The notes under the pieces: generated by a model
What the model was told of the DNA's origin: nothing
Databases searched by the model: none
The model's input: the letters and a program-made list of their open reading frames with translations, nothing else
Shown: one piece after another, positions 4,401-53,391 of the stretch
Layout: each line of letters opens with the position of its first letter
How positions within the stretch are numbered: position 1 is the stretch's first letter
Position numbers and translations under genes: made by a program
IMG/VR virus record: IMGVR_UViG_3300028558_000016
Span: 342,014 to 406,013 of that record
Direction: 5' to 3' (one strand)
Length of the DNA: 64,000 bases
Origin: a virus

Positions 4401-5060
4401 GCAAGATCTCTTGTGGACAAAGGATATGTTACTGGATTAATTGCAGGAATGGTGACTGGTACTGGAACAACTTATACACTTCCTCTTTGGACGGATGGAC
4501 CTTCGAGCATTATTGGAGATTCTTTGTTCTTCCAAGACTCTTTAGCAAGAGGAGCAGGAGTTGGAGTTTCAACAGCGGCAGTTGTAAAAAGATACAAAGA
4601 ATTCGTTCACTCATCAGACGACGCAGGTGTTGTTGGTGACGCGCAAGCTTCTGAACAAATTTTGCAAGCATTGACGTTTGATGCAACAGTAACACAAATG
4701 TCGCTTGACTCAGGAGGATTGGAATATCTTTCAATAGGAACGGGATTAGGTGACAATAGAGTAGTAGGTTTTGAAGTTTTTGTTTCTGCTGTTCAAACAG
4801 GAGGAGTTGCTGGAACACCTGGAGATGCAATGATAATGAAATTCAGAGGTGGAATAAAATTCATCGGAGGTTCTGCAACACAAATAGGAAGCACCACACA
4901 AGAAATAGTTGCAGTGGACTCAGGAGCTTCAGCTTGGACAGTCGTTGTTGATTCAGATCCATTAGCAGTTGTTGGTGGAGTTAGAATTAGAGTTACTGGA
5001 GAAATAAACAAGAACATCAAGTGGGTTGCCAAGTGTAATCTAACTGAAGTTGCATACTAA
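1431..5060 (+). CDS. large tail fibre/structural protein (1209 aa) with an internal duplication
   Basis: Long G/S/T/N-rich ORF. Internal repeat KVIKSQNGNGQINMDY / KVIKSTNGGGQIDLDY (around 3410-3540 and 4020-4150). Motif GSRLVEADSSGNL is shared with the 5078 gene. Confidence 0.6.
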   Translation: MSGLSLNTQTTIAFKNLLNKSNTDVTKGLGNEAEDIKFNIHSDTIFVNPISATTATAIAAGVAVFVQANLTLDGTSNGHAYFATWPVTPPTGTDPFTALPYAYGSGVLTGISAGQRVKNAISFSYGTAYEVIPYSGPPVIANRIFVNDPRNWVYQYQSGIFFQENIGAAPQIIEVYAYTGQILTDVIGVASSSIPLAGTSPGFPVTGDIEFTDGVKIFLNTSPASYIQFHSGLSPSVPTVEIAGNLLLLGDLSVYGTTTTIHEETVQVEDNNIVMNFGGTHTTANGGGITIQDGISTGVPATFEIDTNGDWYLNGFKLKLSGNLTTTGSFNTTLVQQFTGSITLPAVATTLVGKTGTNVTNNVTLWADADQVTSAAAGYLTFDGSLFKVGPSSLDLIAFGLGTAETLNGVIGINAKNISAGTSAYSVIAASESSTNYVGMFNYNASKSSVYVGTSISLASTGHIASSNATLGGRALVINGLPIYNISGNTSTNYGSRLDAAGLKIDQIQFLHLASALAKLHVKDSTNNGSTNTLLLQDSVGTNMVTVNSAGNVNVGNLAGVGSRLVEADSSGNLFATISGSSLGLWELVGSDIVTSASLLSPAVPNVLPAFNDLQDLGSVSNRWRDLYLGSKIDFSSVLDFAVGNSPFDLIGRFENAGLSMYSQKVIKSQNGNGQINMDYFATPGVVAISSDAGGLSESFLFVHPAQIQLYGKVTYVSATAGQLQMTATSDVVITGNGTNVLGVGDFAADIAVADVQSTSKSNNTGYTPAPVMISSKSATAAVGVNTSVFLGGVGHSMFSSVSRSAIIGGSSNTIQTAVNAVLIGGSGNTIGTGSTNVIVLGGSGFSTGFVSNSIFLADNSIIASTKVIKSTNGGGQIDLDYGGTASLIALTTDNGAAFGAALKLQDGAVILQDSSPSASILINTPDTFIHLDESSQLITISSTTLTGQIDLNVSAMSLSISTIGGTKFTDSRISQQGIEYFADYSATYSARSLVDKGYVTGLIAGMVTGTGTTYTLPLWTDGPSSIIGDSLFFQDSLARGAGVGVSTAAVVKRYKEFVHSSDDAGVVGDAQASEQILQALTFDATVTQMSLDSGGLEYLSIGTGLGDNRVVGFEVFVSAVQTGGVAGTPGDAMIMKFRGGIKFIGGSATQIGSTTQEIVAVDSGASAWTVVVDSDPLAVVGGVRIRVTGEINKNIKWVAKCNLTEVAY

Positions 5061-5077
5061 AAATAAATAGAGATTAG

Positions 5078-7033
5078 ATGTCTGTATTTCAAATATTAAA
5101 CGTAGAAGGAATTGAAGCCAATTCCGGATTATTCATCGATACATCGGGTCTCGTTGGAGTTGGTGTTACATCTTCTCTTCTTGCAAATCTGCATGTTCGT
5201 GGAACCGGTTCACCTGCAAACGACATTTTAAGAATCGAAGACATTTCCACAAACGTGGTTGTGTATATCGATGATGTTGCAGCAGGCGTTGCGATAGGAA
5301 GCACAAATCTTTCTGGAACTGTTTACACAAATCCGAAATTAATAGTAAACACAGGAAGCGGAATTCCCGGCTTGATGCACTATAATTCATTTGGTGTTGA
5401 ACTTATTACATTCACAAATGTATCAGACTCTTTATTTGGAAATGCGTCAAACCACGATCTATCATTAATAACAAATAACATTGAAGTAGTAAAAATAACT
5501 GCAGGCGGAAATGTTGGTATAAACCACTTGACTCCTCCTGCTAAATTAACTATTGTTGGTTCTGGAAATACAGTAGCGACTCATTCATTGAGAATCGCTA
5601 ATACATCTTCAGACATTATGATGAACATCCAAGATGATGGATTCGTAGGTCTCGGAACTATCACAAGATTAAATGGTTTCGGACTTGGTAACTTTGGATT
5701 AACGATGCCAGCTTTATTTGTTGATATGCAGGACACTACAGCATCAGCAAATTTATCGATAAGAATAGGAAATTTTACTACATCAACTATAATAGGTACT
5801 TATAATTACACTCACGCATTGGATGGAACTAAAGTTGCAGCTATAGAATTTGATGATGCAACTGGTAATGTTTGGTTTGGTGGATATGGCTACTCAGGAC
5901 AAAAATATGATTTCGTATTAAATTATCAAGACGTAGTTTCTGGACAAAGATTTGCTATAGGAAGTGGAAATCACGTTCAAGACAGCGGAGCGAATCTTTG
6001 GTTTTATGGAGCTTCAAATTCAGCTTCAAATTCACAACAAGCTTATGCAAGCATAGAAGCGTTAAAAGAAAATGCGCTTGATGCGAATTTTGCCGCATAT
6101 TTAAAATTTGGAATAAGCGACAGCTCAAGTCCAACTGTTACGACTGAAGCAATGCGTATAACCAGCGCACAACATTTAGCCATCGGTCTGACTGTACCTT
6201 TAGCAAGACTTGATGTAAGAGCAGGAACTACTGGAGATATTTTCAGATTGAACAATTCCAATTTCCTTTTCGCAGATAAAATGTTGATCAACAATGACGG
6301 ATCTTTTTATTCTGGTTCTATAAATGGTTTTGGAGGTTCTGGAACAGGAACATTTAGGACTGATCATCTCGATTATACTTTAAATACTGCATTCAGCACG
6401 TATTTAGCATTTACAAATAATGGATTGGCTGCAAACATTTCTTCTTATGGAATAATTGGCGGACCTATTGGAAGTTCTGACGTTAATTTCAAACTGAAAG
6501 TTCTTAATACCGACGATGGATCTTTAGGAAGCGTAATGAACGTTGTCACAACTGCCAACAGCACGGCAAGTGATGGAACTAATTATGATAATTATTCTAT
6601 AAAAGTTGTTTCAAGCGGAACTCAGACAAATACTGGAGCTGGAACATTTTTCAAAACCGGTTTATATGTTGATGTGACCAATGGTGATGTCAACAAAGCT
6701 ATTGAGACTGTTGGAGGAACTGTTACAATTGGAGACTTAGCCGGAACTGGAAATAGAGTTGTGGAAGCTGATTCAACTGGTAAATTAGTTGCTGGCGCTG
6801 CTGTTATTGGATCTGCCGCTTCAAAGGTTGCATTTACATTTACGCCTGGAACACCTGGATCTCCAAACACAATAACACATGGACTTGGAACTACTGATTT
6901 TTCAGTTACTCTTTGGGATGTTACGGCTGGAGATATAATTTATGCTAAAATTGATAATGCATCTACTACGGCTGTAGATGTAACATTCACTGTAAATCCA
7001 GCTGGAAATGTTAGAATAGTCATAATTGGATAA
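5078..7033 (+). CDS. tail fibre-like protein
   Basis: The N-terminal N[VI]GIG-type motif and DLAGTGNRVVEADSTGKL are shared with neighbouring fibre genes. G/S/T/N-rich composition. Confidence 0.55.
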   Translation: MSVFQILNVEGIEANSGLFIDTSGLVGVGVTSSLLANLHVRGTGSPANDILRIEDISTNVVVYIDDVAAGVAIGSTNLSGTVYTNPKLIVNTGSGIPGLMHYNSFGVELITFTNVSDSLFGNASNHDLSLITNNIEVVKITAGGNVGINHLTPPAKLTIVGSGNTVATHSLRIANTSSDIMMNIQDDGFVGLGTITRLNGFGLGNFGLTMPALFVDMQDTTASANLSIRIGNFTTSTIIGTYNYTHALDGTKVAAIEFDDATGNVWFGGYGYSGQKYDFVLNYQDVVSGQRFAIGSGNHVQDSGANLWFYGASNSASNSQQAYASIEALKENALDANFAAYLKFGISDSSSPTVTTEAMRITSAQHLAIGLTVPLARLDVRAGTTGDIFRLNNSNFLFADKMLINNDGSFYSGSINGFGGSGTGTFRTDHLDYTLNTAFSTYLAFTNNGLAANISSYGIIGGPIGSSDVNFKLKVLNTDDGSLGSVMNVVTTANSTASDGTNYDNYSIKVVSSGTQTNTGAGTFFKTGLYVDVTNGDVNKAIETVGGTVTIGDLAGTGNRVVEADSTGKLVAGAAVIGSAASKVAFTFTPGTPGSPNTITHGLGTTDFSVTLWDVTAGDIIYAKIDNASTTAVDVTFTVNPAGNVRIVIIG

Positions 7034-12825: not shown

Positions 12826-13233
12826 ATGGAATTAAAAGATTTTATAAAAACCGTATTCGAGAAACCCGAAGAATATTTAGAACTGAGATCTGAAAAGGCA
12901 AAGTTCTTCTTCATGACACAGAGATTCATGAGCATTGCTTTCCCTATTCAGGCACAAGCGTTCAACCATATAAGAATCCCTCAAGCAGAAACAATGGATT
13001 ATTGGCATGAAAGCATGACGAAGCTTTACAAGAAGACTCCACCATGGATATACACTAAAACCAAGAAGGCTGAAAAGAAAAAAGCGAAGGAAGATATGCC
13101 TTCAGATGAAGCTGTCAACTATTACCTTGAAAGGATGAAAATGTCTAAAAGAGAGCTCACCGATGCCATAAAATTATTTGGTGAAGAAGCCATTGAACCC
13201 ATCAGAAGAATAGAAGCTATCATGAAGGAATAG
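12826..13233 (+). CDS. hypothetical protein (TAG stop)
   Basis: ORF begins immediately after the upstream TAA. Ends in TAG with an in-frame TAA two codons later. Confidence 0.4.
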   Translation: MELKDFIKTVFEKPEEYLELRSEKAKFFFMTQRFMSIAFPIQAQAFNHIRIPQAETMDYWHESMTKLYKKTPPWIYTKTKKAEKKKAKEDMPSDEAVNYYLERMKMSKRELTDAIKLFGEEAIEPIRRIEAIMKE

Positions 13234-13796: not shown

Positions 13797-15607
13797 TGTC
13801 AATATACGCTTTAGCATTTACAACAAACAACACTCTTGGCCACATAGGAAGCTATAGGATAATTTCTTATTCCGATGCTTTCTTAAATGTGATTTCTATA
13901 GATGACGTATTTGATTCCGTATCTGGAGAAACAGATGGATATTATGCCAAGAGAAGCTTCAGATATAGCAAGGATGGAAGCAATTGGTCGTTGTGGATAG
14001 ATTTCGTTCCAAGCAATCAGTCTCCAGAAAATATGGCACCAATAAGAAATTTGGTGTTCGATCCCGACCTTCAATATTATTTTGAGTTCAGATACATGGT
14101 GACGGATGTTCCAAACTTCAGTCCTCAGCTTGATCCTGGAGAACAGATTTCTCCAGAAATAACATTAGACACTTTTGACATTGGAATAACATTTAAAAAC
14201 AGAGACCCATTTGCAGGATTCAACATTAGGCCTGTGAATGGATTGTGCTCAGATGAATTTTACACAATTCCAGTTTTATTTCAAAACACTAACTTCACAT
14301 TTGATCCATACAACGTGAACAGAGGAGTTGCGCTCTATCAAGATCTTTCTTTGATGGTGAACAACGTTTTCGGATTCATGGTCAATTATTATAGAGTCAT
14401 TCCACAGTGGAGAGCCAAGGATATTGTGTTGAAAGAATATACTATCAAATCAGTTCAAAGCGAGAAGTGTATTAAGGTTCTTGTTCCAAACAATGAGTTT
14501 CCAGATAATAAGGTAAACTACAATGAATTTGGAATTGATTTTCAACAACCGTTCGAGATTCATATCGACAAAGGATATTGGGAAAGTTTTTACGGAAAAG
14601 GAACCATGCCTCAGAAGAGGGATGTTATTTATTTCCAATTAAACAATAGGTTGTACCAAGTTCAATCAAGCTACATTTACAGAGATTTCATGCAACAGCC
14701 TTTATATTTTAAAGTGCTTCTTGTTAAATACGAAAACTACGCAGACACAATCATACCAGACGACATTCAGTCAACTCTTGACGACATAACTATTTCCACA
14801 GAAGAATTGTTCGGTGAGGACATTCAAAAGGAGATGGATAAGATAACCAAGCCTCAGCAGTATGTCACAATAACATTTGACTCAGATCCTATAAGAGAGA
14901 AAGTATTGAGAGTTCTCCCAATAACAAGATATGATTTCTATGTGAATTGGACTTTGGTGGCAGAACATTTTTATTCCATGAACCAACCATTCTTGCAATT
15001 TGACGGTTCAAACGTTGAAGCAGTTAAATACAGAATTAAATCAAAAGTGCTTGCAAACGAAAATAGGTCGTTTACTTGTTGGTTCCAACCTCAATTGAAT
15101 ACTAAAACTTCTGACAAGACAAGACCTTTATTGAGAGGAATGAATGAGTCAGGTCTTGGTGTTAATATTGATTTGATGTTTTCAAACACGGCTTTAAATG
15201 TTGCACCAAGTCAAATTGTGTTATCATTAAATGCTGATCAATACATATTCAATTTGCAAAAACAATTAAACAAGGATACTTGGTATGCGCTTGTGGTTAA
15301 TTGGAGCAACGAATTTAGTCAAGCGAGTGTAGATCTTTATACACAGCAACAGGCATCTAATCAGTTGTTAAGAATATCACATGAACAGAAGAACATTGTT
15401 TCAGCTGTATTTGATACTGATACTAATTACACGTTGCTTGTGAGTCCGTTGAATTTGACAAACATCAGATTGTTCAACGAGATGCTCGAGGAAGAACATC
15501 ACAACATAGTGTTAAACCAATTAGTTATTAAAGATTCTGAGAAGGCAATAATAATAGATAACGCTAAACCTATATTAAGGCTTCCACGTATTGCTAATCC
15601 TAAATAA
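13796..15607 (+). CDS. hypothetical structural protein (603 aa)
   Basis: Long ORF placed after the fibre genes. Confidence 0.4.
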   Translation: MSIYALAFTTNNTLGHIGSYRIISYSDAFLNVISIDDVFDSVSGETDGYYAKRSFRYSKDGSNWSLWIDFVPSNQSPENMAPIRNLVFDPDLQYYFEFRYMVTDVPNFSPQLDPGEQISPEITLDTFDIGITFKNRDPFAGFNIRPVNGLCSDEFYTIPVLFQNTNFTFDPYNVNRGVALYQDLSLMVNNVFGFMVNYYRVIPQWRAKDIVLKEYTIKSVQSEKCIKVLVPNNEFPDNKVNYNEFGIDFQQPFEIHIDKGYWESFYGKGTMPQKRDVIYFQLNNRLYQVQSSYIYRDFMQQPLYFKVLLVKYENYADTIIPDDIQSTLDDITISTEELFGEDIQKEMDKITKPQQYVTITFDSDPIREKVLRVLPITRYDFYVNWTLVAEHFYSMNQPFLQFDGSNVEAVKYRIKSKVLANENRSFTCWFQPQLNTKTSDKTRPLLRGMNESGLGVNIDLMFSNTALNVAPSQIVLSLNADQYIFNLQKQLNKDTWYALVVNWSNEFSQASVDLYTQQQASNQLLRISHEQKNIVSAVFDTDTNYTLLVSPLNLTNIRLFNEMLEEEHHNIVLNQLVIKDSEKAIIIDNAKPILRLPRIANPK

Positions 15608-15687
15608 TTTTTTTCAATTAGATTATTATTTTGCTATATTTGTATCTGTTAGTCGTATCTGATAATGTTAAACTAAAAAAAAGAAAA

Positions 15688-15942
15688 ATGAACATTTTTG
15701 TAAGCAATCTGAACTTCAAGATGACTGAAGATCAGCTAAGAGAAGAGTTCGAGAAATACGGAGACGTAAGCTCGGCCAAGATCATCAAGGACAGGGATTC
15801 CGGAAGAAGCAAAGGCTTTGGTTTCGTAGAAATGCCTGAAACAGAAGATGCCAATGAGGCAATAAAAGAATTAAACGGAGCAGAGATCAATGGCCGTGCA
15901 ATCGTTGTTAACGAAGCGCGTCCAAAGACAGCATCACGATAA
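15688..15942 (+). CDS. RRM-type RNA-binding protein
   Basis: MNIFVSNLNF (RNP2-like) and KGFGFVEM (RNP1-like) motifs. About 85 aa from the internal ATG at 15688. TAtaTTTG -7 element at 15635-15642. Confidence 0.7.
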   Translation: MNIFVSNLNFKMTEDQLREEFEKYGDVSSAKIIKDRDSGRSKGFGFVEMPETEDANEAIKELNGAEINGRAIVVNEARPKTASR

Positions 15943-15966
15943 TATTCTCTTCGCGAAAAGAACAAG

Positions 15967-16000
15967 AAAACCTCTGTACGAAAGTGCAGAGGTTTTTTTA
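15967..16000. terminator. bidirectional rho-independent terminator
   Basis: cctctg-tacgaaagtg-cagagg hairpin followed by a T run. Sits between the convergent + strand gene and the - strand tRNA. Confidence 0.6.
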
Positions 16001-16005
16001 TTTGC

Positions 16006-16079
16006 AGAACTCCAAGTGGGGATCGAACCCACGACCAAAGGTTTTAGAGACCTACGTTCTACCACTGAACTATTGGAGC
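16006..16079 (-). tRNA. tRNA with anticodon CUA (amber suppressor); G1-U72, U73
   Basis: Reverse complement folds as a cloverleaf. D-stem gttc/gaac, anticodon loop cuCUAaa, T-arm gtggg-ttcgatc-cccac. The 27:43 position is a U-U mismatch. Confidence 0.55.
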
Positions 16080-16080
16080 A

Positions 16081-17094
16081 TTAAGAGAAGATTTCTTTAA
16101 TGTGAGAGTCTAATGTTTTTTCATCGAAATGTGACAGCAATTCTTGTTCTGAGATCATTTTAATCATTCCACCCATTTCAGTTATTTTGGAAATAACATT
16201 TTCGTACCAATAGGCTTCCGTCTGTCCTGTATTTTTAATTTTGAATATTGGACCCTTTGTTTGTTTTGAAAAACCTACAAACTCAAAATCACTTGTGAAG
16301 TTCATCATGAGTCTGTCATCAGCAGGATCTTCAAGACCTACAATGTTTGCATACCACGTTAGGTCTAATATTTTGGTTGCATTTTCAAACGAAGGTGTTT
16401 TGCTTTGTATTTGTAAATTACGTACATTTACTCCGTGCATCGTAGTGTCAAGTTGTAATTTTCCATAGTATATTAATCCGTAAGAATAATTATATCCTTG
16501 CCTATTGCTGCAGGTATCACCTTTGGCAGTGTCTTGACATAAAAATATTTGGCCACCTTCTAATGTTATTTTTCCTTTAGCAGGTTTATAACCGCTTCCG
16601 GCATGATCGATTTCTCCTACGAACATTTGTCCTTGGTAAAAATCTTCTACGACTAATTCTGATTGTGGCTTGTTGATAGGTGAAAATTGTTCAGTCATTT
16701 TAATAGGTTTTTTCGTAAATTTATCTTCCATAACAGATCTCATCAACCATTGTTTTTCTAAAAGATTAGCAGGTCTGCAATTTCTTCCAGTTATCCAAGG
16801 AGTGCATTCATGAATTTTACCTTTGTTATTTGAATCTTTCCTGAATGTTTCTGTTACGTCAGAAGATTCAGTTACATGAGTAATGGTTGACACATAATAA
16901 TGAGAATGTGCACGATCTTTATCGTCGGTATGCTCTTTAAATTTGAACACAATCTCGAGATCCTTTTGTATTCCATCAGCATCATCCAACATTTCGTGAC
17001 AGTGATAAATTTCTCCAGGTACAAGGTCCTCAACCTTAAGCGATTCCATTTTAATCTGTTTAAATGCGTAGCTTAAAACCTCTACCATGAACAT
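16081..17094 (-). CDS. hypothetical protein (337 aa)
   Basis: ORF on the - strand immediately upstream of the suppressor tRNA. Start overlaps the 17060 gene. Confidence 0.45.
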   Translation of the reverse strand: MFMVEVLSYAFKQIKMESLKVEDLVPGEIYHCHEMLDDADGIQKDLEIVFKFKEHTDDKDRAHSHYYVSTITHVTESSDVTETFRKDSNNKGKIHECTPWITGRNCRPANLLEKQWLMRSVMEDKFTKKPIKMTEQFSPINKPQSELVVEDFYQGQMFVGEIDHAGSGYKPAKGKITLEGGQIFLCQDTAKGDTCSNRQGYNYSYGLIYYGKLQLDTTMHGVNVRNLQIQSKTPSFENATKILDLTWYANIVGLEDPADDRLMMNFTSDFEFVGFSKQTKGPIFKIKNTGQTEAYWYENVISKITEMGGMIKMISEQELLSHFDEKTLDSHIKEIFS

Positions 17095-17569
17095 TTAGAA
17101 TTTCAATGCTGCTATCTTGTTTTAAATAAGCTCTCAGCTTTGTAATGTAAACATCCATGCTTCGGCTGTTGTAATAATTGATGTCTCTCCAAATTTCTTT
17201 CAACGCAACATTTCGTTCAAGCTCAGTGTTCATGCAAAGCATTTTGAGTAATTGAGTTTCTTTGTTTGTCAATTTCTTGTCAATTGAATTTAGAGTTAAA
17301 ATTCTCTTGTTTTCATTGAACATGTATTTACCAATTTTGAAATTGACTTCATCATTGGTTCTGATTTTAGTATCAAGACTCATGTCCTTCATCATTGTTT
17401 CCATCATAGACTCTTCGGTCCTGCCATTGAATATCATGACATTCGCGTCGATGTCCTCGATCCCTGCTTCCTTTAAGTTGAACAGTATCGGTTCGTTGTT
17501 TTTAAGCTTCTCGATATTCTTATCGCTCAAGCCTAAAATTATTGTGTTTCCTACTTTTGCTTTTATCAT
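17060..17569 (-). CDS. OmpR/PhoB-family winged-helix DNA-binding protein without a canonical receiver domain
   Basis: C-terminus ALKEIWRDINYYNSRSMDVYITKLRAYL...GRGFKL matches the OmpR effector-domain pattern (RtVDVHI.rLR...vRG.GY). The N-terminal ~95 aa lack receiver-domain motifs. Confidence 0.55.
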   Translation of the reverse strand: MIKAKVGNTIILGLSDKNIEKLKNNEPILFNLKEAGIEDIDANVMIFNGRTEESMMETMMKDMSLDTKIRTNDEVNFKIGKYMFNENKRILTLNSIDKKLTNKETQLLKMLCMNTELERNVALKEIWRDINYYNSRSMDVYITKLRAYLKQDSSIEILNVHGRGFKLRI

Positions 17570-18300
17570 GGTTTTTTGTATAATTCTGGTCTGTCATGTA
17601 ATCCATTGAATTGGATAAATGATTTTGCTATCTTATCAAAGTCCTTGTCATTTTTAATTTCATATCTTTCCACGGCATTAAAAAATCCATCGTCGGCCGT
17701 GCATCCGCCATAACTCTCACCGATGTAAAGAAGATACTGTCCAGGCTTCATGGCATTCCATATCATGTGAGCCAACGGATCCATATAAGGCCAAGACAAC
17801 ACGAACATATCTGCATCTTCTGCCTGCTTGACGAATCTAACCGCATCCTCTTGTTTAACTATTGGAAGAAAATTGTTTGATTTCTTGTAATGGGCCCACG
17901 TCTTATTGTCAACGGCTTCCTTTAATGGTATTCCATATTTTTTCATCCAATGAGAGAACCAGCCTGTTCCGCAACACAATTCGTGCACAACCTTCATCTT
18001 CTTCTTATCACAGAACTTCTTCATGGCAGTAAGCATCTCGTCATTATAAGCGACGAACGAATGTTCGAGATACATCTCTCTAATAACGAAAGGACTCATC
18101 CATTTGTTCTCATCCTTGATTATATCCTTAATGGATTTAATTGACAATAGGTTGTCATACGGGTCTCTTACATGCTGTGTGATTACTTTTCTTGATGGAA
18201 GCTTCTCAGACGACAAATCGAATGTAGAACGGATTGCTTCCGTAACATCCTGGTCGAGGGTTTCTATCAGTGAACCGTATCTTTTTTCAGCCCGTGTCAT
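17566..18300 (-). CDS. putative SAM-dependent methyltransferase
   Basis: VHELCCGTGWFS resembles motif I. LSWPYMD is a possible motif IV. 4-nt overlap with the downstream gene. Confidence 0.4.
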   Translation of the reverse strand: MTRAEKRYGSLIETLDQDVTEAIRSTFDLSSEKLPSRKVITQHVRDPYDNLLSIKSIKDIIKDENKWMSPFVIREMYLEHSFVAYNDEMLTAMKKFCDKKKMKVVHELCCGTGWFSHWMKKYGIPLKEAVDNKTWAHYKKSNNFLPIVKQEDAVRFVKQAEDADMFVLSWPYMDPLAHMIWNAMKPGQYLLYIGESYGGCTADDGFFNAVERYEIKNDKDFDKIAKSFIQFNGLHDRPELYKKP

Positions 18301-18374
18301 TGTAGCAATTTACCAAAAAACCATGAATCTTTTAAAGATATATAGATCAAATACACAAATTAACTAAAATCGCC

Positions 18375-18974
18375 ATGCTTAAGTACGTAAAATTATATGA
18401 GTCTTTTCTTTCTGAGGCACAGGCCGAGGTCACCACGACTAAGACTATCAAGCTGAATAAGGGAATTCAAGAGAAGGTTAAATTGGCAGCAGAATTAAGC
18501 TCCCAATTGAAACATGCTACAGCCGATTACGAGGCAAAGATAAAACCAATGCAAGAGGTTCTTAACAAGTATGATGAAGAGATCTTAAATGCTTTAACGG
18601 CTGTTAATGCTAATCAGGCAAAGGTTGAAGACATCATCGCAAAAGTTATGATGGCCAAAGGAAGAATGACTGACTCTTACAAAACTCTTTGGGAAGAAGC
18701 ATTGAAGAAAATGAATGACGCAACAAGAAAAACAATGTTGGAAATTCAAGCAGCAAACAAGAAGCAAAATCCAGATAAGTACTGGATGGAATATGTTAAG
18801 GAAGAAGCAATGACTAACGAAGGTTTCAAGGACATCCAAGAATGGGGTTCTAAATTGGTTAACAAATTTAAAACTTGGGTTAAAGACGTTTGGTCTAAAG
18901 TTAAGAATGCGATTGGCGAACATGAGAAAGCAGTCGACAATCTCGAAGCAGTTGCAGCAAAACTTCCTAAATAA
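18375..18974 (+). CDS. hypothetical protein (coiled-coil)
   Basis: Charged, helical-looking ORF. Confidence 0.4.
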   Translation: MLKYVKLYESFLSEAQAEVTTTKTIKLNKGIQEKVKLAAELSSQLKHATADYEAKIKPMQEVLNKYDEEILNALTAVNANQAKVEDIIAKVMMAKGRMTDSYKTLWEEALKKMNDATRKTMLEIQAANKKQNPDKYWMEYVKEEAMTNEGFKDIQEWGSKLVNKFKTWVKDVWSKVKNAIGEHEKAVDNLEAVAAKLPK

Positions 18975-22535: not shown

Positions 22536-23438
22536 ATGGACAACTTGTATAATAGTAATGGTTTGATTTTTTGGTCAGAAGCGGAGATAAAACTTCGTGA
22601 GATGTTCGAGAACTATTTCGTTCAAAAACTGAAGACCAATCTCAAATCTCAGAACAGAGCATTCGACCTTTATAAGTGCGAAGCTCCATTATTGACTCCG
22701 GTCGATTTAATAAACCCGAATTATACCGAAGAGGATGTTTGGATTCAAGCCAATTTAAGAGGTGCAATGCCGGTTGTTCGTTATGCTGAAAAGAAATCGA
22801 GCATTGACGATGACATGGAAAAATTAATGTCATTGAGCAAAGAACACATGCGTTCCGAAGAGGATAGTTATTACAAACGCATGCTTGAATTGAACGATCA
22901 AATTACAAATGGAAAATTGAATATGGACCTTGCCATTGAAATGGGTGCGGTATATACTGAGATGTATCCTAATCATTCATTAGTATTAAGGCCTGAAACC
23001 ACAATGGGAAGTTATGCTTATGCAAGACATTTGCTTAATCCGCACAATGCAGTTAAGATAATGCCACCATTGGTTGTATATCAACATGGAAAATCATTTA
23101 GAAGAGAACAGGATCAGCCCACAAAATACATGAGGCTTAAGGAATTCTATCAATTGGAATTCCAGATACTATATTCACCTTCTACCAAGAACGACTATTC
23201 TCTAACGTTGATCCCTACAGTAAAACAAATGATAGAGGATATGATTGGTCCGTGTCATGTGGAAGATTCAGACAGACTTCCAAGCTATGCTGAATGGACA
23301 AGAGATGTCATCTGCGATAAAACAGGAATGGAAGTTTGTTCAATGTCAAAAAGAACTGACTACGAGAACATGAACGTCATTGAGGTGGCAATAGGAACCG
23401 ACCGGTGCATATATAATTTCAATTTGAAGAATGGATAA
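22536..23438 (+). CDS. class II aminoacyl-tRNA synthetase-like catalytic core (GlyRS-like), lacks an anticodon-binding domain
   Basis: LRPETTMG, then HGKSFRREQDQP...MRLKEFYQLEFQ, resembles class IIa motif 2 (GKSFRNEI...RVREFtqaE). Only 300 aa. TAtaTTTG at 22512-22519. Confidence 0.5.
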   Translation: MDNLYNSNGLIFWSEAEIKLREMFENYFVQKLKTNLKSQNRAFDLYKCEAPLLTPVDLINPNYTEEDVWIQANLRGAMPVVRYAEKKSSIDDDMEKLMSLSKEHMRSEEDSYYKRMLELNDQITNGKLNMDLAIEMGAVYTEMYPNHSLVLRPETTMGSYAYARHLLNPHNAVKIMPPLVVYQHGKSFRREQDQPTKYMRLKEFYQLEFQILYSPSTKNDYSLTLIPTVKQMIEDMIGPCHVEDSDRLPSYAEWTRDVICDKTGMEVCSMSKRTDYENMNVIEVAIGTDRCIYNFNLKNG

Positions 23439-25194: not shown

Positions 25195-26262
25195 ATGAAA
25201 AAATCTGTAATAAAAGTTTTTTATACAGAAAAACAAGTAAACACTAACGCAAACATAGAAGCTGCATCGAAATCAAAATCACCACTCAAACCGGTTCTTT
25301 TGATGAAAGCTTTAGATGTTCTTGGATATGGAAAAAATCTGGATATTGATCCAGATTTTTTTCCATTTAAAGACGAGGACTTCCTGCTTGCGCACACTAA
25401 AAATTACGTTGAAGCATTTTTCAATGGTGTTCAACCATTGTGTCAAAGTAATTTCTTACCGTGGAGCCAAGAATTGGCAGACTCAGTTCGTTACACTAAT
25501 GCGAGTTTGTATAACGCAATTAGATATGCTTACTTAAATCCTGACCAAGTTACATTAAGTCCTACATCAGGATTCCATCATGCAATGCCTCACAGAGGCG
25601 ATGGATTTTGTACATTCTCAGGACAGGTTATTGCTGCAGAAAAAATGTATCAAGAGTTTGGAGTGTCTGGTGCTGTTCTTGATTTGGATGGTCACACAGG
25701 AAATTCCATAGATGATGCTCGTGGTTTTGCTAAAACAATTGATTTAGCAATTCCGCACGAATATAATTTTGCTCAGCTTAAAGGTAGTGATAAACACTAT
25801 CTCGACTCTCTTTTAGAAGCAATGGATAAAATTGAAACAGGTGTATTGGAAAATAAAATACATTATCTAATGTGGTGCCACGGTGCAGACTCTCACGAGG
25901 ATGATGATTTTGGTGGACAGGTTGACACAGAATATTGGGTTAAATGTTCTGAAGCATTTTATGCTTGGGTGAATCAATTGGATGCTAAATTGATTGCAAT
26001 GGGAAGAAAACCTCTTCCAGTCATTTTAAGTTTATTTGGAGGTTATCGTGATGATGATTATTATTCAGTTATTTCGTTGCACATAAAAGATTTGACAACA
26101 TGTCTTAATCTTCTTTGTGGAGAAAACATAAATTATGATGTGAACGTAAAAGATAAACGTCCAACAATAAAACGTAAACCACCTGAAAAATGGTTTGATG
26201 GAATGCCGCTATCTCTTTTGAATGTTCTTTACCCAGGAAAATATGACGATATAAACACATAG
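25195..26262 (+). CDS. histone deacetylase/acetoin-utilisation (arginase-deacetylase superfamily) protein; TAG stop
   Basis: SGFHHAMPHRGDGFCTFSG and VLDLDGHTGNS resemble the HDAC motifs (GGFHHA..asGFC, DiDvHHGdG). Confidence 0.5.
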   Translation: MKKSVIKVFYTEKQVNTNANIEAASKSKSPLKPVLLMKALDVLGYGKNLDIDPDFFPFKDEDFLLAHTKNYVEAFFNGVQPLCQSNFLPWSQELADSVRYTNASLYNAIRYAYLNPDQVTLSPTSGFHHAMPHRGDGFCTFSGQVIAAEKMYQEFGVSGAVLDLDGHTGNSIDDARGFAKTIDLAIPHEYNFAQLKGSDKHYLDSLLEAMDKIETGVLENKIHYLMWCHGADSHEDDDFGGQVDTEYWVKCSEAFYAWVNQLDAKLIAMGRKPLPVILSLFGGYRDDDYYSVISLHIKDLTTCLNLLCGENINYDVNVKDKRPTIKRKPPEKWFDGMPLSLLNVLYPGKYDDINT

Positions 26263-26264
26263 GG

Positions 26265-26340
26265 CTTGGCCGGAATCAGGGGACTGCGGATTCTAAACCC
26301 GCTGAACCGTGGGTTCGACTCCCACCCAGGCTACCAATTA
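26265..26340 (+). tRNA. degenerate tRNA-like gene with encoded CCA; anticodon-position loop uuCUAaa (CUA)
   Basis: Canonical T-arm gtggg-ttcgact-cccac. Acceptor ggcttgg/ccaggct with A73 and CCA encoded. D-arm short and poorly paired. Anticodon stem has 4 bp plus a mismatch. Confidence 0.4.
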
Positions 26341-31985: not shown

Positions 31986-31990
31986 CAAAT

Positions 31991-32122
31991 GGCCGTTTTG
32001 TCGGTTGGAAGCTTAAGGAAAATGCATGAGTACTTAAGTGATAAAACTACTGGTGACAAAACTCGAAATGCGAAACTGCAGAGTAACATTTCAAGTTAGG
32101 AGTTCGAATCTCTTAACGGCTA
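31991..32122 (+). ncRNA. long tRNA-like element (about 132 nt)
   Basis: Acceptor ggccgtt/aacggct and a canonical T-arm aggag-ttcgaat-ctctt. About 100 nt separate the 5' acceptor from the T-arm and no clear D or anticodon arm is visible. Confidence 0.3.
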
Positions 32123-32189
32123 CAAAAAGTTCTTTAACATGGGAAAGTCTTTAATGATGCAGAGGTGAAAAATCCTTCTTTCCCACCAA

Positions 32190-32260
32190 GGTCCAATAGC
32201 TCAAGTGAAGAGCATCTTTCGCAAGAAAGAAGGTTGGTGGCTCGTTGCCATCTTGGACCA
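32190..32260 (+). ncRNA. degenerate tRNA-like element
   Basis: Acceptor ggtccaa/ttggacc. D-arm gctc/gagc. Anticodon position is tcttt-cgcaag-aaaga (6-nt loop, a GCAA tetraloop closed by C-G). T-loop ctcgttg is noncanonical. Confidence 0.35.
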
Positions 32261-32264
32261 CTAA

Positions 32265-32337
32265 CGCCTCATAGCTCAGTTGGCAGAGCGTCGGTCTCTA
32301 AAACCGATGGTCGTGGGTTCGAACCCCACTGAGGCGG
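32265..32337 (+). tRNA. tRNA with anticodon CUA (amber suppressor); C1-G72, G73
   Basis: Clean cloverleaf. Acceptor cgcctca/tgaggcg. D gctc-agttggca-gagc. Anticodon stem tcggt/accga with loop cuCUAaa. T-arm gtggg-ttcgaac-cccac. Confidence 0.75.
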
Positions 32338-32392
32338 CAAATAAAAAATAAGTAATATGAAAAAGTAGATTAACATCCGAGGTCCTGATGAA

Positions 32393-39197: not shown

Positions 39198-39695
39198 ATG
39201 GGGAAGATAAAGAAGTTCAAGGAATTCAACGAGAAGGAATCTGAGTATACCGTTTATTCAAATAAGAAAGGTGGAAAATTCTGGGGTGACCAGGGTGCTG
39301 GTGTTCTTCCCATTTGCAGAAAAACAGGAAGAATTCTTGTTGCCATGAGAGGTGAACAGGTAAATGAGCCTCACACGTGGGGAATTTTTGGAGGAGCGAT
39401 GGACGAAGGAGAAACTCCAGAAGAATCTGCAAAAAGAGAATTAGTTGAAGAATCAGGATATACTGGAAAATTTGAAATCATTCCAGCTTTCATATATGTG
39501 TCTCTGGATCAAAAGTTCACATACAATAATTTCATAGGGATAGTCGACGAGGAATTCCAACCGGAATATGATTGGGAAACTGAATATGCTAAATGGATGA
39601 CTCTCGATGAATTGCTTAGTGCAAAGCCAAAACATTTCGGCTTAAAGAAGCTCTTGGACAAGAGCATGGATATAATCAAGAAATTTGCAAAGTAG
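39198..39695 (+). CDS. Nudix hydrolase (TAG stop followed directly by TAA)
   Basis: Nudix box GIFGGAMDEGETPEESAKRELVEESGY (Gx5Ex7REUxEExGU). Confidence 0.7.
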   Translation: MGKIKKFKEFNEKESEYTVYSNKKGGKFWGDQGAGVLPICRKTGRILVAMRGEQVNEPHTWGIFGGAMDEGETPEESAKRELVEESGYTGKFEIIPAFIYVSLDQKFTYNNFIGIVDEEFQPEYDWETEYAKWMTLDELLSAKPKHFGLKKLLDKSMDIIKKFAK

Positions 39696-44591: not shown

Positions 44592-44678
44592 GGGTAAGTT
44601 GCCGTAGTGGCCGAACGGTCCAGACTGTTAATCTGGTGAGAGCAATCTCCGTCGTGGGTTCGAATCCCACCTCGCCCT
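44592..44678 (+). tRNA. type II (long variable arm) tRNA with anticodon loop cuGUUaa; unusual combination
   Basis: Acceptor gggtaag/ctcgccc (one A-C mismatch). Long D-loop. Anticodon stem ccaga/tctgg. 17-nt variable arm. T-arm gtggg-ttcgaat-cccac. U73. Confidence 0.45.
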
Positions 44679-44685
44679 CAACTTT

Positions 44686-45418: not shown

Positions 45419-45492
45419 GGGACATTCCATACTAATTGGTAAGTCACTCGGTTGTAACCCGAGAAATGGGGGTTCGAGTCCCTCATGTCCCA
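45419..45492 (+). tRNA. type I tRNA-like with anticodon loop uuGUAac (GUA) and a weak D-stem
   Basis: Perfect acceptor gggacat/atgtccc with A73. Anticodon stem ctcgg/ccgag. T ggggg-ttcgagt-ccctc. D-stem poorly paired. Confidence 0.45.
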
Positions 45493-45493
45493 C

Positions 45494-45577
45494 TGTACAG
45501 TATGCAAATTGGCGAAGCGAACAGATTTTGGATCTGTTGGAGTAATCCCGCTGCAGGTTCGAGCCCTGCCTGTATAA
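45494..45577 (+). tRNA. type II (Leu-like body, A73) tRNA with anticodon loop uuUUGga (UUG); unusual combination
   Basis: Acceptor tgtacag/ctgtata. D-loop aaattggcgaa. Anticodon stem acaga/tctgt. 15-nt variable arm with a gga/tcc stem. T gcagg-ttcgagc-cctgc. Confidence 0.45.
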
Positions 45578-45591
45578 CTAAAATTAAAAAC

Positions 45592-46676: not shown

Positions 46677-46749
46677 TGTCTCGTAGCGCAACTGGCAGAG
46701 CGCCTGATTCTGGATCAGGAGGTTGGAGGTTCGAGCCCTCCCGAGACAA
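46677..46749 (+). tRNA. tRNA-Gln(CUG)
   Basis: U1-A72 acceptor tgtctcg/cgagaca. Anticodon stem cctga/tcagg with loop uuCUGga. T ggagg-ttcgagc-cctcc. Confidence 0.65.
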
Positions 46750-46768
46750 CAATTAAAACATAAATAAT

Positions 46769-48328
46769 ATGTCAAGAAAAGTAAGAGTAAGATTTGCCCC
46801 GTCACCGACAGGGCCACTTCACATGGGTGGCGTAAGAACCGCCTTGTATAATTATCTCTTTGCTAAAAAGCACGGAGGTGATTTCATTTTAAGAATAGAA
46901 GATACAGACAAAGACAGATTTGTTCCTGGCGCAGAAGCTTACATCATTGAAGCTTTGAATTGGTGTGGAATAACTCCTAACGAAGGAATAGATGGAAATT
47001 CTGTTCTTGATACATACAAGCAATCAAAAAGAAATGAGGCTGGAATATACAATCCTTATGTTGCAAAATTAATTGCAGAAGGAAATGCATATTACGCATT
47101 TGATACTAAAGAAGATCTTGACGCATTGAGAACTTCTGTTTCTGAAAAAAGAAAAGCAGGATTAAAAGTAAGAGAATTCGCTTATGGTGTTTTCACAAGA
47201 GAATTATTGAACAACAGCTTGAACATGACTGCCGATGAATTGAAAGCAAGATTGGATGCTGGAATTCCTTATGTCATTCGTTTGAAGATGCCTAAGGAAG
47301 TTGAAATTAAATTCGTTGATTTGATCAGAGGTGCTGTCACTGTAAAAAGTCACACCATCGATGATAAGGTTATATTCAAGAGCGATGGACTTCCAACATA
47401 CCATTTGGCAAATGTTGTTGACGATCACTTGATGGACATTTCTCACGTCATTAGAGGTGAGGAGTGGTTGCCATCGGCACCGTTGCACGTCATGCTATAC
47501 AAGATGTTAGGTTGGGAAGATACCATGCCTGAGTTTGCACACCTTCCTTTGATCATGGGACCAAGCGGTAAATTGAGCAAGAGAGATGGAGATACATTGG
47601 GATTTCCTGTATATCCTTTAAAGTATACAGATCCAAAAACATCTGAGACATCGAGCGGTTACCGTGAGAATGGTTTCTTGCCAAGTGCATTCAATAACAT
47701 GGTTGCATTTCTTGGTTGGAATCCAGGTGGCACCGATGAGGTATTCACAATGGATGAAATGATCGATAAATTCTCTTTGGATAGAGTAGGAAAATCAGGA
47801 GCTAAATTCGATTTGAAGAAGGCTAATTGGTTCAATCACCAACACATGATGAAGTCTGATAATGATGACTTGGCAAAATTATGGATCAGCAATGGAGGAT
47901 TATACAATGGAGCCATGGGTGTTTGGTCTACTGATGCGACAAAACAACGTGTTGATTCATTTGAATATGTTTCAAAGGTTTGTGGATTGCTTAAAGAGAA
48001 GGTTTCTAACATCAATGATTTTTGGAATTCTGGAAAATATTTCTTTATTGCGCCTGAGCCAAGTCTTGGAACAGAACATTCTTCGTTCTTGGCAGAAGTA
48101 ATTGCAAACATAACTAAGGATGAAGTGTTCAATCACGATTCTTTAAGAGCTGTGTTTGATGCTTCAGTTAAGGCAACCGGTGTTGACGCAAGAGAGGCTG
48201 GAATGGTTTTAAGGATTGCTGTAACAGGAATGAAAGTTGGTCCACCTTTATTTGATGCAATGGAATTGATAGGTAAAAATGAATCAATAAACAGAATAGC
48301 ATCTAACGTGGTAGTCAATCATGAGTAA
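46769..48328 (+). CDS. gltX: glutamyl-tRNA synthetase
   Basis: VRFAPSPTGPLHMGGVRTALYNYLFAKKHGG (HIGH region). KLSKR motif. 519 aa, typical GluRS architecture. Confidence 0.75.
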   Translation: MSRKVRVRFAPSPTGPLHMGGVRTALYNYLFAKKHGGDFILRIEDTDKDRFVPGAEAYIIEALNWCGITPNEGIDGNSVLDTYKQSKRNEAGIYNPYVAKLIAEGNAYYAFDTKEDLDALRTSVSEKRKAGLKVREFAYGVFTRELLNNSLNMTADELKARLDAGIPYVIRLKMPKEVEIKFVDLIRGAVTVKSHTIDDKVIFKSDGLPTYHLANVVDDHLMDISHVIRGEEWLPSAPLHVMLYKMLGWEDTMPEFAHLPLIMGPSGKLSKRDGDTLGFPVYPLKYTDPKTSETSSGYRENGFLPSAFNNMVAFLGWNPGGTDEVFTMDEMIDKFSLDRVGKSGAKFDLKKANWFNHQHMMKSDNDDLAKLWISNGGLYNGAMGVWSTDATKQRVDSFEYVSKVCGLLKEKVSNINDFWNSGKYFFIAPEPSLGTEHSSFLAEVIANITKDEVFNHDSLRAVFDASVKATGVDAREAGMVLRIAVTGMKVGPPLFDAMELIGKNESINRIASNVVVNHE

Positions 48329-49385
48329 TATGCCAATAGGAATCCAAGCAATGGGTCCAGCCGAAGTAATAACGGAAATGTTTCTTCGTCCTGGATCCAT
48401 TTCTGCTTATAGAGAGCAGATGGATCTGCTTGATAAAAACAAGGAACATATTTCTGTTCACGATGGATTTTCTATAATAACTTTCTGGGAACCTGCAACG
48501 AAGGCTTTCAATGCCGGCTGGAAGATGAGAGTTGTTTATGGCGAAGTAAAAGAAAAGAAATATTTTGTAAAAGATAATTGGAAAAACAAAACAGTTTATT
48601 CTGGTGCAAGGCCTGAATGCGAAAAATACGTTCAGGGAAATAACACATATCAATTAAATTATTCTCGTTTGACAATCGAAATTAATTCAACTCTCGATGA
48701 TAAGTTGGATGAATTAAAAAAGATTATTTCTGACTCAACAAAGCCAGATGAGAACGAATTGCGTTTTGCAAAGGCTACATCTAATTGGATCAAGGGTCCT
48801 GTCATGGGTTGGTTGAATGATAACAAGCTTGATTTCACCACTCGTTCTAAACCATCTCATCATAAATCATTAGTCACTGGAAATCTTTTCGACTATGAAA
48901 AATATTCTGCCATTGATGAAGAGAAGTGGTGGCCTAAAGATTCTCCTGATGCAAAACTTTATTTGCCTCTTCCTAAAGACGAATATCCTTACACAGTCGT
49001 GTATTCTGAAGAGGAGAGTAATTTTCCAATAAAATCTGAACATTTAAAAGAATTAATAAGCTTGGTTGAATTTACAGATCTTATTAGTTTCTCTACTGCT
49101 TCCAAAACTGTTTTTCCTGAGATGATCAAAAATCCAGATGAAAAACCTTGGGATATAATTCAAAGATTAAATTTGATGCAAAGCAATGATGATGATGCCA
49201 TCAAACAAATGGCCAAAGATGCTTTAGCAAAATATCCCGACAAGGTTGAAGAATATAGGAAAGGAAAGAAGGGAGTTCTCAGCCTGTTCATGGGCGAAGT
49301 AATGAAAGCCGGTAAAGGAAAAGTAAATCCGCAAATGGCTTCAGAAATAGTAAAAAATCTTTTGGAAGAAAAGGAGGGAGCATAA
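48321..49385 (+). CDS. protein with a C-terminal GatB/YqeY-like domain
   Basis: C-terminus EEYRKGKKGVLSLFMGEVMKAGKGKVNPQMASEIVKNLL matches the GatB/YqeY pattern (GkekalgfLvGqvMk.tkGkanP..v.e.l). The N-terminal ~280 aa are unrecognised. Confidence 0.5.
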   Translation: MSNMPIGIQAMGPAEVITEMFLRPGSISAYREQMDLLDKNKEHISVHDGFSIITFWEPATKAFNAGWKMRVVYGEVKEKKYFVKDNWKNKTVYSGARPECEKYVQGNNTYQLNYSRLTIEINSTLDDKLDELKKIISDSTKPDENELRFAKATSNWIKGPVMGWLNDNKLDFTTRSKPSHHKSLVTGNLFDYEKYSAIDEEKWWPKDSPDAKLYLPLPKDEYPYTVVYSEEESNFPIKSEHLKELISLVEFTDLISFSTASKTVFPEMIKNPDEKPWDIIQRLNLMQSNDDDAIKQMAKDALAKYPDKVEEYRKGKKGVLSLFMGEVMKAGKGKVNPQMASEIVKNLLEEKEGA

Positions 49386-52851: not shown

Positions 52852-53391
52852 ATGAAAGCAGTTTATATTGGCGAATACGTCAAAGAAAAAATGTTCGATA
52901 GGTTATTGAACGAAGTGGCCTGGGCCAATAAGGAAGCTCCAAGAGACGAATGCTTTATGGCATTGGAATCTTTGGAATATACTTATGGAAAAGGATTCAC
53001 AAGAACGTACACTTCTTTAGAAATGCACGTTGAAGTGTTGGGCATCATGAAAAAGATGAACGACGAAATGGGAACCGAGTATAACGTTTGCTTCTTGAAT
53101 TATTACAAGAGCGAAAAAGAACACTTAGGTTGGCATGCAGATGATTCTCCTGAAATGGATGAGACACACCCAATAGGTGTTGTATCATTTGGAGCTGAGA
53201 GATACATTTGGACGAAAAATAAGGACTACAGGGGAAACATTCCTGATGAAGATAAGTATTTATTAGGGGATGGTTCTTTGTTTATCATGCCTGCAGGTTT
53301 CCAAAAGGATAACTTGCACAAGATACCAAAGAATGACAAACCTTGTGGAGGAAGAATTAGTTTAACATTTAGAAAATTCATAAACAAATGA
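52852..53391 (+). CDS. AlkB-like 2OG-Fe(II) dioxygenase
   Basis: LGWHADDSPE...PIGVVSFG...GDGSLFIMPAG...H...GRISLTFRKF follows the AlkB pattern HxD...H...RxSxTFR. Confidence 0.55.
   Translation: MKAVYIGEYVKEKMFDRLLNEVAWANKEAPRDECFMALESLEYTYGKGFTRTYTSLEMHVEVLGIMKKMNDEMGTEYNVCFLNYYKSEKEHLGWHADDSPEMDETHPIGVVSFGAERYIWTKNKDYRGNIPDEDKYLLGDGSLFIMPAGFQKDNLHKIPKNDKPCGGRISLTFRKFINK

Follow-up and report, generated by a model that had tools for sequence, protein, structure and literature searches.

Why does a phage carry a transfer RNA (tRNA) gene whose anticodon reads a stop codon, and is that codon read as sense anywhere in its genome? This question is raised by a stretch of 64,000 nucleotides (hereafter, the window) from the IMG/VR virus record IMGVR_UViG_3300028558_000016 (positions 342,014 to 406,013), which contains, on the minus strand at 16007-16079, a tRNA gene with the anticodon CUA. 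The window corresponds to approximately positions 308,606-372,605 of the 482,059-bp metagenomic contig ena:ERZ27245401:k141_1209612 (source sample run SRR8464961) and, as judged from its gene content, comes from a huge phage equipped with translation genes of its own, a kind of phage reportedly described by Al-Shayeb and coworkers in 2020. Phage suppressor tRNAs are already known from large gut phages; the one analyzed here comes from an uncharacterised lineage of about 480 kb. Such tRNAs have been proposed to act as a switch from the standard to an alternative genetic code during infection, and their charging enzyme and amino acid are still largely a gap in the field. On balance, we consider it probable that the gene at 16007-16079 encodes a functional amber (UAG) suppressor tRNA of an approximately 482 kb huge phage that probably infects Bacteroidota. 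The locus is a well-supported further example of such genes and by itself leaves the current picture unchanged.

ARAGORN calls a tRNA with the anticodon CTA at 16007-16079, and the Rfam tRNA model RF00005 spans 16008-16079 (-) end to end with 67.7 bits, compared with a gathering score of 29 (E-values of 1.4e-12 for the whole window and 6.7e-14 for a local scan). Parsed arm by arm, the molecule consists of an acceptor stem (GCTCCAA/TTGGAGT) that begins with G1·U72 and C2-G71, a D arm (GTTC-AGTGGTA-GAAC), an anticodon arm (TAGGT-CTCTAAA-ACCTT) in which U27·U43 is unpaired, a 5-nt variable loop (TGGTC), a T arm (GTGGG-TTCGATC-CCCAC) and the discriminator U73, after which CCA is not encoded. The stems of 7, 4, 5 and 5 base pairs are accompanied by U8, A14, G18G19, U33, G53-T54-psi55-C56, A58 and C61, and all canonical tertiary positions are intact. 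As in amber suppressors, CUA occupies positions 34-36 of a 7-nt loop (CUCUAAA) with U33 and A37, and this loop is unchanged in all orthologues and family members. An earlier, sequence-only reading of this DNA had proposed a minus-strand CUA tRNA with these arms and had named a failed covariance-model fold as what would refute it, with the 27:43 U-U mismatch as the weak point. ARAGORN, the full-length RF00005 match and the arm parse all bear the proposal out. The worry over the mismatch was misplaced: U27·U43 is the sole unpaired cell in the three orthologues described below, and most members of the family have a G·U wobble at 27:43, so that it is not a real weakness of the fold.

Related loci were reached through homologues of the product of open reading frame (ORF) X, the last of the three minus-strand ORFs that precede the tRNA (Table 1). 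One of them, L003, matches the window without a difference over 21 kb (100% identity) and thus represents the same phage rather than independent evidence. In two others, L004 (X 74% identical) and L005 (methyltransferase encoded by the first ORF of the block 78% identical), a CUA tRNA occupies exactly the same site and is followed by an equivalent terminator hairpin and then by the gene for an RRM-type RNA-binding protein. These orthologous tRNAs are 92% (L004) and 72% (L005) identical to the window copy, about the same divergence as that of the flanking genes. Across the three orthologues, 98.4% of the pair cells are paired and six pairs are doubly changed, that is, compensatory; pairing and double changes at this level were matched by 1 of 500 shuffles, and slid controls were 35-49% paired. 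G1·U72, C2-G71, U73 and the entire anticodon loop are invariant while the acceptor pairs 3:70, 4:69, 6:67 and 7:66 have changed, and in L005 CCA is encoded after U73. Among 10 phage CUA tRNAs with this body, compensatory changes are found in 10 of the 21 pairs. The retained pairing, the compensatory changes and the invariant loop and acceptor end together indicate a maintained, functional tRNA gene, and on these comparisons 16007-16079 is a real, conserved tRNA gene with a UAG-reading anticodon.

The genes preceding the tRNA vary among these loci. The winged-helix gene, the middle member of the block, is present in L004 and absent in L005, where the arrangement is methyltransferase-X-tRNA and X is shorter (201 aa). 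L027 (methyltransferase 58% identical) has the methyltransferase-X cassette and no tRNA, with an X protein of 580 aa (4522-6264, -) that includes a ribosomal L7/L12 C-terminal domain; in L028, the most distant relative (methyltransferase 47% identical), the methyltransferase-X cassette is likewise present and there is no tRNA at the site. Viewed across these genomes, the cassette varies and carries the tRNA at its 3' end as a lineage-specific passenger; the position of the tRNA beside the regulator gene is incidental.

The 5' end of the tRNA lies 1 nt past the TAA stop codon of X, and the simplest inference from so short a spacer is that the two are transcribed together. In the scenario that we favor, the tRNA would be made as the tail of the minus-strand methyltransferase/winged-helix/X transcript, which would end at the bidirectional hairpin; RNase P would cut 1 nt past the X stop codon, and, because CCA is not encoded here, the 3' trailer would have to be trimmed and CCA added. 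Once charged, the tRNA would compete with release factor 1 and insert an amino acid at UAG. The parallel is with phages in which TAG is rare as a stop, and by this parallel the suppressors would make UAG readable, typically as glutamine (Gln), for late-expressed genes. In the analysis of Borges et al. (preprint), phage CUA suppressors are the means of TAG-to-Gln recoding, the association is strong, and the recoded codons concentrate in structural and lysis genes; a jumbo-phage survey found the same association between suppressor tRNAs and TAG recoding, and the recoded phage phAss-1 has three CUA tRNAs (PMC10607447). With the TAG-recoded (code 15) gut phages, namely the crAss-like, Lak, Garnet, Amethyst and Sapphire clades (Borges et al.) and phAss-1, the phage analyzed here shares a phage-encoded CUA tRNA, low GC, few TAG stops, several suppressor copies, a host that is probably a standard-code member of Bacteroidota, and the location of the tRNA in a standard-code region near translation genes. 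It differs from them in the lack of in-frame TAG in the 80 kb surveyed, to which we turn now, and in the unusual acceptor end (G1·U72, U73).

The usage of TAG was surveyed over 80 kb, that is, the window together with 8.5 kb upstream (locus L006) and 7.5 kb downstream (L001), or about 17% of the 482-kb contig. This region contains 105 genes with a coding density of 92% under the standard code, of which 72 end in TAA, 27 in TGA and 6 in TAG. Phage-encoded CUA tRNAs (three) and depletion of TAG stops are thus combined here as in phages with code 15, and in-frame TAG in conserved genes is absent from the region surveyed. Several of these observations weigh against functional amber suppression. 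In-frame TAG was found in 0 of the 105 genes, the TAG-free ones including six that encode unannotated proteins of 570-1209 aa, probably virion components to judge from their size and one weak PHROG match; six genes still end in TAG; and no in-frame TAG was detected in the orthologues of window genes on the related huge-phage contigs L004, L005 and L027-L029. Every TAG inside the frames obtained with TAG as a sense codon sits before the start or at the end of a gene, and the only TAG aligned within any match occurs in the unrelated contig L011, where the identity is 37%. The search for TAG-interrupted genes that the sequence-only reading had recommended therefore came back empty over these 80 kb, leaving no visible target of readthrough, and the recoded genes, if the genome has any, lie outside the 80 kb.

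The TAG stops themselves are informative to a limited extent. In five of the six, another stop follows within 0-8 codons, and the median distance to the next stop is 4.5 codons for TAG compared with 4 for TGA; a backup-stop signal after TAG was considered and dropped, as TGA stops show the same pattern. At 13231-13233 and 39693-39695, TAA follows the TAG after 2 and 0 codons, respectively, a sample too small to be told apart from chance; so close a TAA would limit readthrough if the suppressors are active. TAG is scarce as a stop across the phage group, including the loci without a CUA tRNA within 10 kb. As for accessory genes of a code change near the suppressor (RF2 or a dedicated aminoacyl-tRNA synthetase), the scan of the window genes brought up no release factor; it did bring up GluRS, a GatB-tail protein and a GlyRS-like core.

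Which amino acid would be inserted can be approached through the acceptor end. In Escherichia coli, Gln identity is conferred by U35, a weak 1:72 pair, G10, G73, G2-C71 and G3-C70, and an amber suppressor that has U35 inserts Gln once its 1:72 pair is weakened (PMC9976931). The phage tRNA has U35, the weak G1·U72 and G10-C25, and the module of GluRS, tRNA-Gln(CUG) and the GatB-tail protein located 30 kb from it counts in favor of Gln. The other rules speak against this amino acid: the discriminator is U73 and not G73, the second pair is C2-G71 and not G2-C71, and 3:70 is U-A or C-G and not the Gln-type G3-C70. Nor does the distribution of U73 favor it, given that, of the 71 tRNAs whose discriminators were surveyed in this phage and at related phage loci, those with a short variable arm otherwise carry U73 only if they are tRNAs for glycine (Gly; 6 of 6) or cysteine (Cys; 3 of 3). 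With U73 limited in this manner and the Gln rules partly unmatched, Gln is a precedent and not a result. G1·U72 is also present in Val and Met tRNAs of related phages and hence is not diagnostic.

These features lead to the possibility that the tRNA is not a Gln suppressor but has a Gly- or Cys-type acceptor and is charged with Gly by the host GlyRS or by the phage GlyRS-like core (Table 1), which would imply that the three suppressors insert different amino acids at UAG. Bacterial Gly identity involves U73, G1-C72, C2-G71, G3-C70, C35 and C36; U73 contributes to the identity of Gly and Cys tRNAs alike and is important for the activity of tRNAGly amber suppressors in vivo (PMC9976931). In the three orthologues, U73 and C2-G71 stay constant and the acceptor stem otherwise varies, and the company of U73 in the phage group is that of Gly and Cys tRNAs; the remaining rules are not followed, with G·U instead of G-C at 1:72, U-A or C-G instead of G-C at 3:70, and C35 and C36 absent. 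The GlyRS-like core, most similar to dimeric GlyRS, retains motif 2 (GKSFRRE...KEFYQLE) and motif 3 (GTDR, G-x-D-R), and its AlphaFold2 (AF2) model is confident (predicted local distance difference test, pLDDT, 86.8), with GlyRS as the best PDB folds. Its family, however, is large (more than 1,600 members), and two related huge phages have the gene close to ordinary tRNA-Gly genes and no CUA tRNA within 10 kb of it, so that a dedicated pairing with the suppressor has a low probability. The three CUA tRNAs carry three discriminators, U (16007), A (26263) and G (32265), and the two traceable CUA lineages each keep their own acceptor signature, G1·U72/U73 (16007) and C1-G72/G73 (32265); on the other side, TAG to Gln is the only reassignment observed in TAG-recoding phages (Borges et al., preprint). 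Weighing these points, we regard charging with Gly as improbable, and we are just as doubtful of its extended form, in which the CUA tRNAs would be non-redundant, the tRNA at 16007 neo-functionalised and Gly-charged by either enzyme, and UAG non-Gln or ambiguous. Should that form be correct, the phage would possess a natural anticodon-blind pair of synthetase and suppressor tRNA outside the Pyl and Sec systems. The presence or absence of the tRNA in relatives, the three acceptor ends and the phage synthetases make this lineage a sensible choice for studying which enzymes charge phage suppressors.

Returning to functional amber suppression, the alternative to be taken most seriously, though in our estimate unlikely, is that the standard code is used throughout, with the suppressors tolerating or insuring against TAG nonsense mutations or else damaging UAG termination in the host during takeover. 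In this case, the phage itself would largely avoid TAG stops, and the insurance variant would amount to the stage before recoding envisaged by Borges et al. (preprint), who documented standard-code relatives with suppressors and proposed them as the first step toward recoding, after TAG depletion. The survey of 105 genes is what one would expect under this scenario: there is no in-frame TAG, the few TAG stops mostly have a further stop close behind, and TAG is rare even at loci without a nearby CUA tRNA. The presence and absence of the tRNA among close relatives implies, moreover, that it is dispensable. Three different CUA tRNAs are, however, the pattern of a recoded phage (PMC10607447), the next-stop distance after TAG does not differ from that after TGA, and the survey spans about 17% of the genome. 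The same patchy distribution could mean that the tRNA has no decoding role at all and is a duplicate in decay, serves as a site of recombination or acts as a decoy for host nucleases that target tRNAs, and the phage does encode an RNA ligase, an AlkB-like oxygenase and a metallophosphatase of the RNA-repair type; but the six compensatory changes point to purifying selection on the cloverleaf, the anticodon loop and acceptor end are constrained as well, and the tertiary positions are all intact, which makes this the least credible of the explanations considered. Nearly as hard to credit is the proposal of the sequence-only reading that the winged-helix regulator controls the co-transcribed suppressor and thereby stop-codon readthrough. 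In the window and in L004, regulator and tRNA do appear to form a single transcription unit, but the tRNA is kept in L005 without the regulator gene, the cassette of L027 and L028 comes without the tRNA, the 80 kb hold no TAG-interrupted target, and no promoter or operator was identified at the locus, where a scan for sigma-70-like promoters gave chance-level results and the Bacteroidetes TAnnTTTG (-7) motif is not enriched. Furthermore, the CUA tRNA at 26263 also abuts the stop codon of the preceding ORF, so that riding on the transcript of a neighbor is not special to the tRNA at 16007.

A different identity altogether might be suggested by the label tRNA-Pyl, which ARAGORN gives to any CUA tRNA. 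Pyrrolysine tRNA has a 3-nt variable loop, a short D loop without G18G19, a 6-bp anticodon stem and only one base joining the acceptor stem to the D stem. The phage tRNA shares with it the CUA anticodon only, differing in the G18G19/T-psi-C elbow, the 5-nt variable loop, the 5-bp anticodon stem and the two acceptor-D bases, and the scan of the window genes revealed neither PylRS nor genes for pyl biosynthesis; the canonical core led us to reject this identity. The cultured Sinorhizobium phages Phosso and phiM12 and the Pectobacterium phage CBB have CUA tRNAs that are annotated as 'tRNA-Pyl' or 'tRNA-TERM'. These are unrelated phages of Proteobacteria with large, tRNA-rich genomes, and their tRNAs have the same body (D arm, CUCUAAA loop and GTGGG-TTCGA-CCCAC T arm) as the one analyzed here but carry A73 and an encoded CCA; the closest GenBank match to our tRNA comes from the cultured phage Phosso (469 kb; 81.8% identity over 65 nt). 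The body is also found with other acceptor ends, mostly A73 and in some cases G73, in IMG/VR and JGI contigs, and BLAST against phage tRNAs returns mixed isotypes (suppressor, Trp, Lys, Met and Thr). Two scans of the genomes of 185,579 species for the body with the anticodon left free gave no match, and a possible tRNA-Trp-like ancestry, suggested by the tRNA-Trp of Bacillus subtilis, was dropped. Gut phages also have suppressor tRNAs associated with theta (hepatitis delta virus-like) ribozymes (PMC10879173), which resemble the present case in being phage suppressors whose 3'-end maturation is at issue. The 3' flank here, in contrast, is a plain terminator hairpin, and an Rfam scan of 15400-18500 at E<=1 detected the tRNA, a chance-level leader match on the terminator and no ribozyme family, the availability of a theta-specific model in Rfam being unchecked.

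Table 1. The CUA tRNA genes of the window, the cassette around the tRNA at 16007-16079 and the GlyRS-like gene.
Feature	Position	Strand	Description
CUA tRNA	16007..16079	-	anticodon 16045-16047; 72 nt to discriminator U73; ARAGORN, RF00005, arm parse
S-adenosylmethionine (SAM)-methyltransferase-like	17566..18300	-	244 aa, class I; first in block; phrog_19090 3e-08, phrog_363
Winged-helix protein	17060..17569	-	169 aa; OmpR/PhoB-type DNA-binding domain, residues ~99-167
ORF X	16081..17094	-	337 aa; last ORF of block; 335 aa from 17088 in public assembly
Terminator-like hairpin	15961..16002	.	bidirectional; A-tract on one side, T-tract on the other; between tRNA and RRM gene
RRM-type RNA-binding protein gene	15688..15942	+	convergent, shares terminator; Pfam RRM_1 2.4e-25; 84 aa in L003
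GlyRS-like class II core	22536..23438	+	300 aa; without anticodon-binding domain
CUA_c tRNA	32265..32338	+	C1-G72, G73; ARAGORN, Rfam
CUA_b tRNA-like	26263..26336	+	ARAGORN only; short D region; G1·U72, A73, encoded CCA

The three-gene minus-strand block just upstream of the tRNA had been recognized in the sequence-only reading, together with the nature of two of its products, the lack of any recognizable kind for the third (337 aa) and the bidirectional terminator beyond the tRNA, and each of these elements withstood closer analysis. The ORFs overlap or abut one another, with the 1-nt spacer before the tRNA. The methyltransferase-like protein has, besides its best PHROG match, a match to phrog_363 (DNA methyltransferase; 0.003) and tblastn matches to class I SAM-dependent methyltransferases of jumbo phages. 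The winged-helix protein matches Pfam Trans_reg_C (4.6e-11) and, over the C-terminal domain only (about 70 residues), the NCBIfam model of Bacteroides RprY (1.2e-33), the next-best response regulator model reaching only 6.8e-9; a receiver domain was not detected with Pfam or NCBIfam. The phage may have captured this domain from a host, at whose promoters the protein could imitate RprY. The RprY-like domain is the best clue to the host, which is therefore probably a member of Bacteroidota. Protein X has no match by sequence in Pfam, PHROGs, NCBIfam or PDB, and its AF2 model, built from a 3-sequence alignment, is unusable (pLDDT 40). Its family, with 57 representatives, is modular, a repeated middle domain of about 90 aa being flanked by conserved N- and C-terminal domains. 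The sole clue to its function is the fusion, in 4 of 39 relatives, to the ribosomal L7/L12 C-terminal domain, which hints at a connection of the X family with the ribosome or a translation GTPase. The hairpin shared by the tRNA and the convergent RRM gene folds with -16.2 kcal/mol (z = -5.6; none of 200 shuffles folds as well) and was overlooked by a simple terminator scan because of an internal mismatch.

The other two CUA tRNAs differ in their relationship to the tRNA at 16007. CUA_c is its closest match (57 of 72 positions identical), with the same anticodon and variable loops and a T arm that differs by one loop base. An orthologue of CUA_c that keeps C1-G72/G73 is located beside tRNA-Cys in L028, which lacks the tRNA at 16007. 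Since CUA_c is both the closest match and the copy retained in this distant relative, the tRNA at 16007 is probably a young paralogue of CUA_c that arose by duplication and acquired a replaced acceptor end (G1·U72, C2-G71, U73). In L028, tRNA-Cys and the CUA tRNA are just 3 nt apart. In the window, they are separated by a 280-nt spacer (31990-32260) in which T-arm-like and acceptor-like pieces, e.g. GGTCCAATAGCTCAAG...TTGGACCA, can be discerned by eye; these look like decayed tRNA copies, and Rfam gave nothing on the spacer beyond a chance-level Y-RNA-like match. In CUA_b, the anticodon is at position 31 owing to the shortened D region; Rfam does not report it at the gathering score, and relaxing the cutoff to E<=1 brings up nothing but a 20.5-bit tmRNA-clan match over the 3' part. 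The preceding gene, at 25195-26262, is histone-deacetylase-like, and CUA_b begins directly after its TAG stop. Readthrough of this TAG into CUA_b was considered and rejected: it would yield a 40-codon extension without homology to the longer orthologue in L028, so that TAG is the true stop of the deacetylase-like gene.

The setting of these genes is rich in translation functions. ARAGORN detects 18 tRNAs in the window, including the three with the anticodon CUA, and the aminoacyl-tRNA synthetases encoded here are TyrRS, a bacterial-type GluRS, ProRS and MetRS in addition to the GlyRS-like core, along with IF3, the protein with a GatB/YqeY tail, enzymes of nicotinamide adenine dinucleotide (NAD) salvage and RNA-repair-type genes. 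No close relatives were found among GenBank phages by megablast (14-20 kb) or by tblastn of a 900-aa protein, nor in IMG/VR with an exact 47-nt tRNA pattern, the X protein or a methyltransferase profile. The GlyRS-like family comprises 1,673 homologues, many of them on contigs of 460-492 kb, and is represented among GenBank huge phages by LR756504 (636 kb), Phosso (469 kb), XbC2 and the Caulobacter giant phages. At 46677-49385 (+), tRNA-Gln(CUG) is followed 19 nt downstream by the GluRS gene (46769-48328) and then by an overlapping gene for a 354-aa protein, of which the GatB/YqeY tRNA-binding tail is the only recognizable part; there is no tRNA-Glu in the window. By its gene content, this region looks like a phage module for indirect synthesis of Gln-tRNA(Gln) or for handling of tRNA-Gln.

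The tRNA cluster upstream of the TyrRS gene includes three odd tRNAs (+). Two of these, at 44592-44679 and 45494-45578 (88 and 85 nt), have long variable arms and the anticodons of Asn (GUU) and Gln (UUG), and the former carries U73, like some Ser tRNAs of related loci; the third, at 45421-45490 (70 nt), is detected by Rfam only; its variable arm is short and its anticodon is that of Tyr (GUA). Comparable long-arm 'Gln(UUG)' tRNAs with U73 are found in L007 and L009. The odd tRNAs could reflect mis-called anticodons or introns, or they could be mistranslating tRNAs. Finally, a run of genes at 52852-54652 (+) encodes an AlkB-like 2-oxoglutarate (2OG) oxygenase, a metallophosphatase and an RNA ligase (PF09414), and a peptidyl-tRNA hydrolase, PTH2, is encoded just beyond the end of the window (L001 4173-4565); to judge from the predicted functions, this RNA-repair and rescue run is consistent with defense against host tRNA-targeting nucleases.

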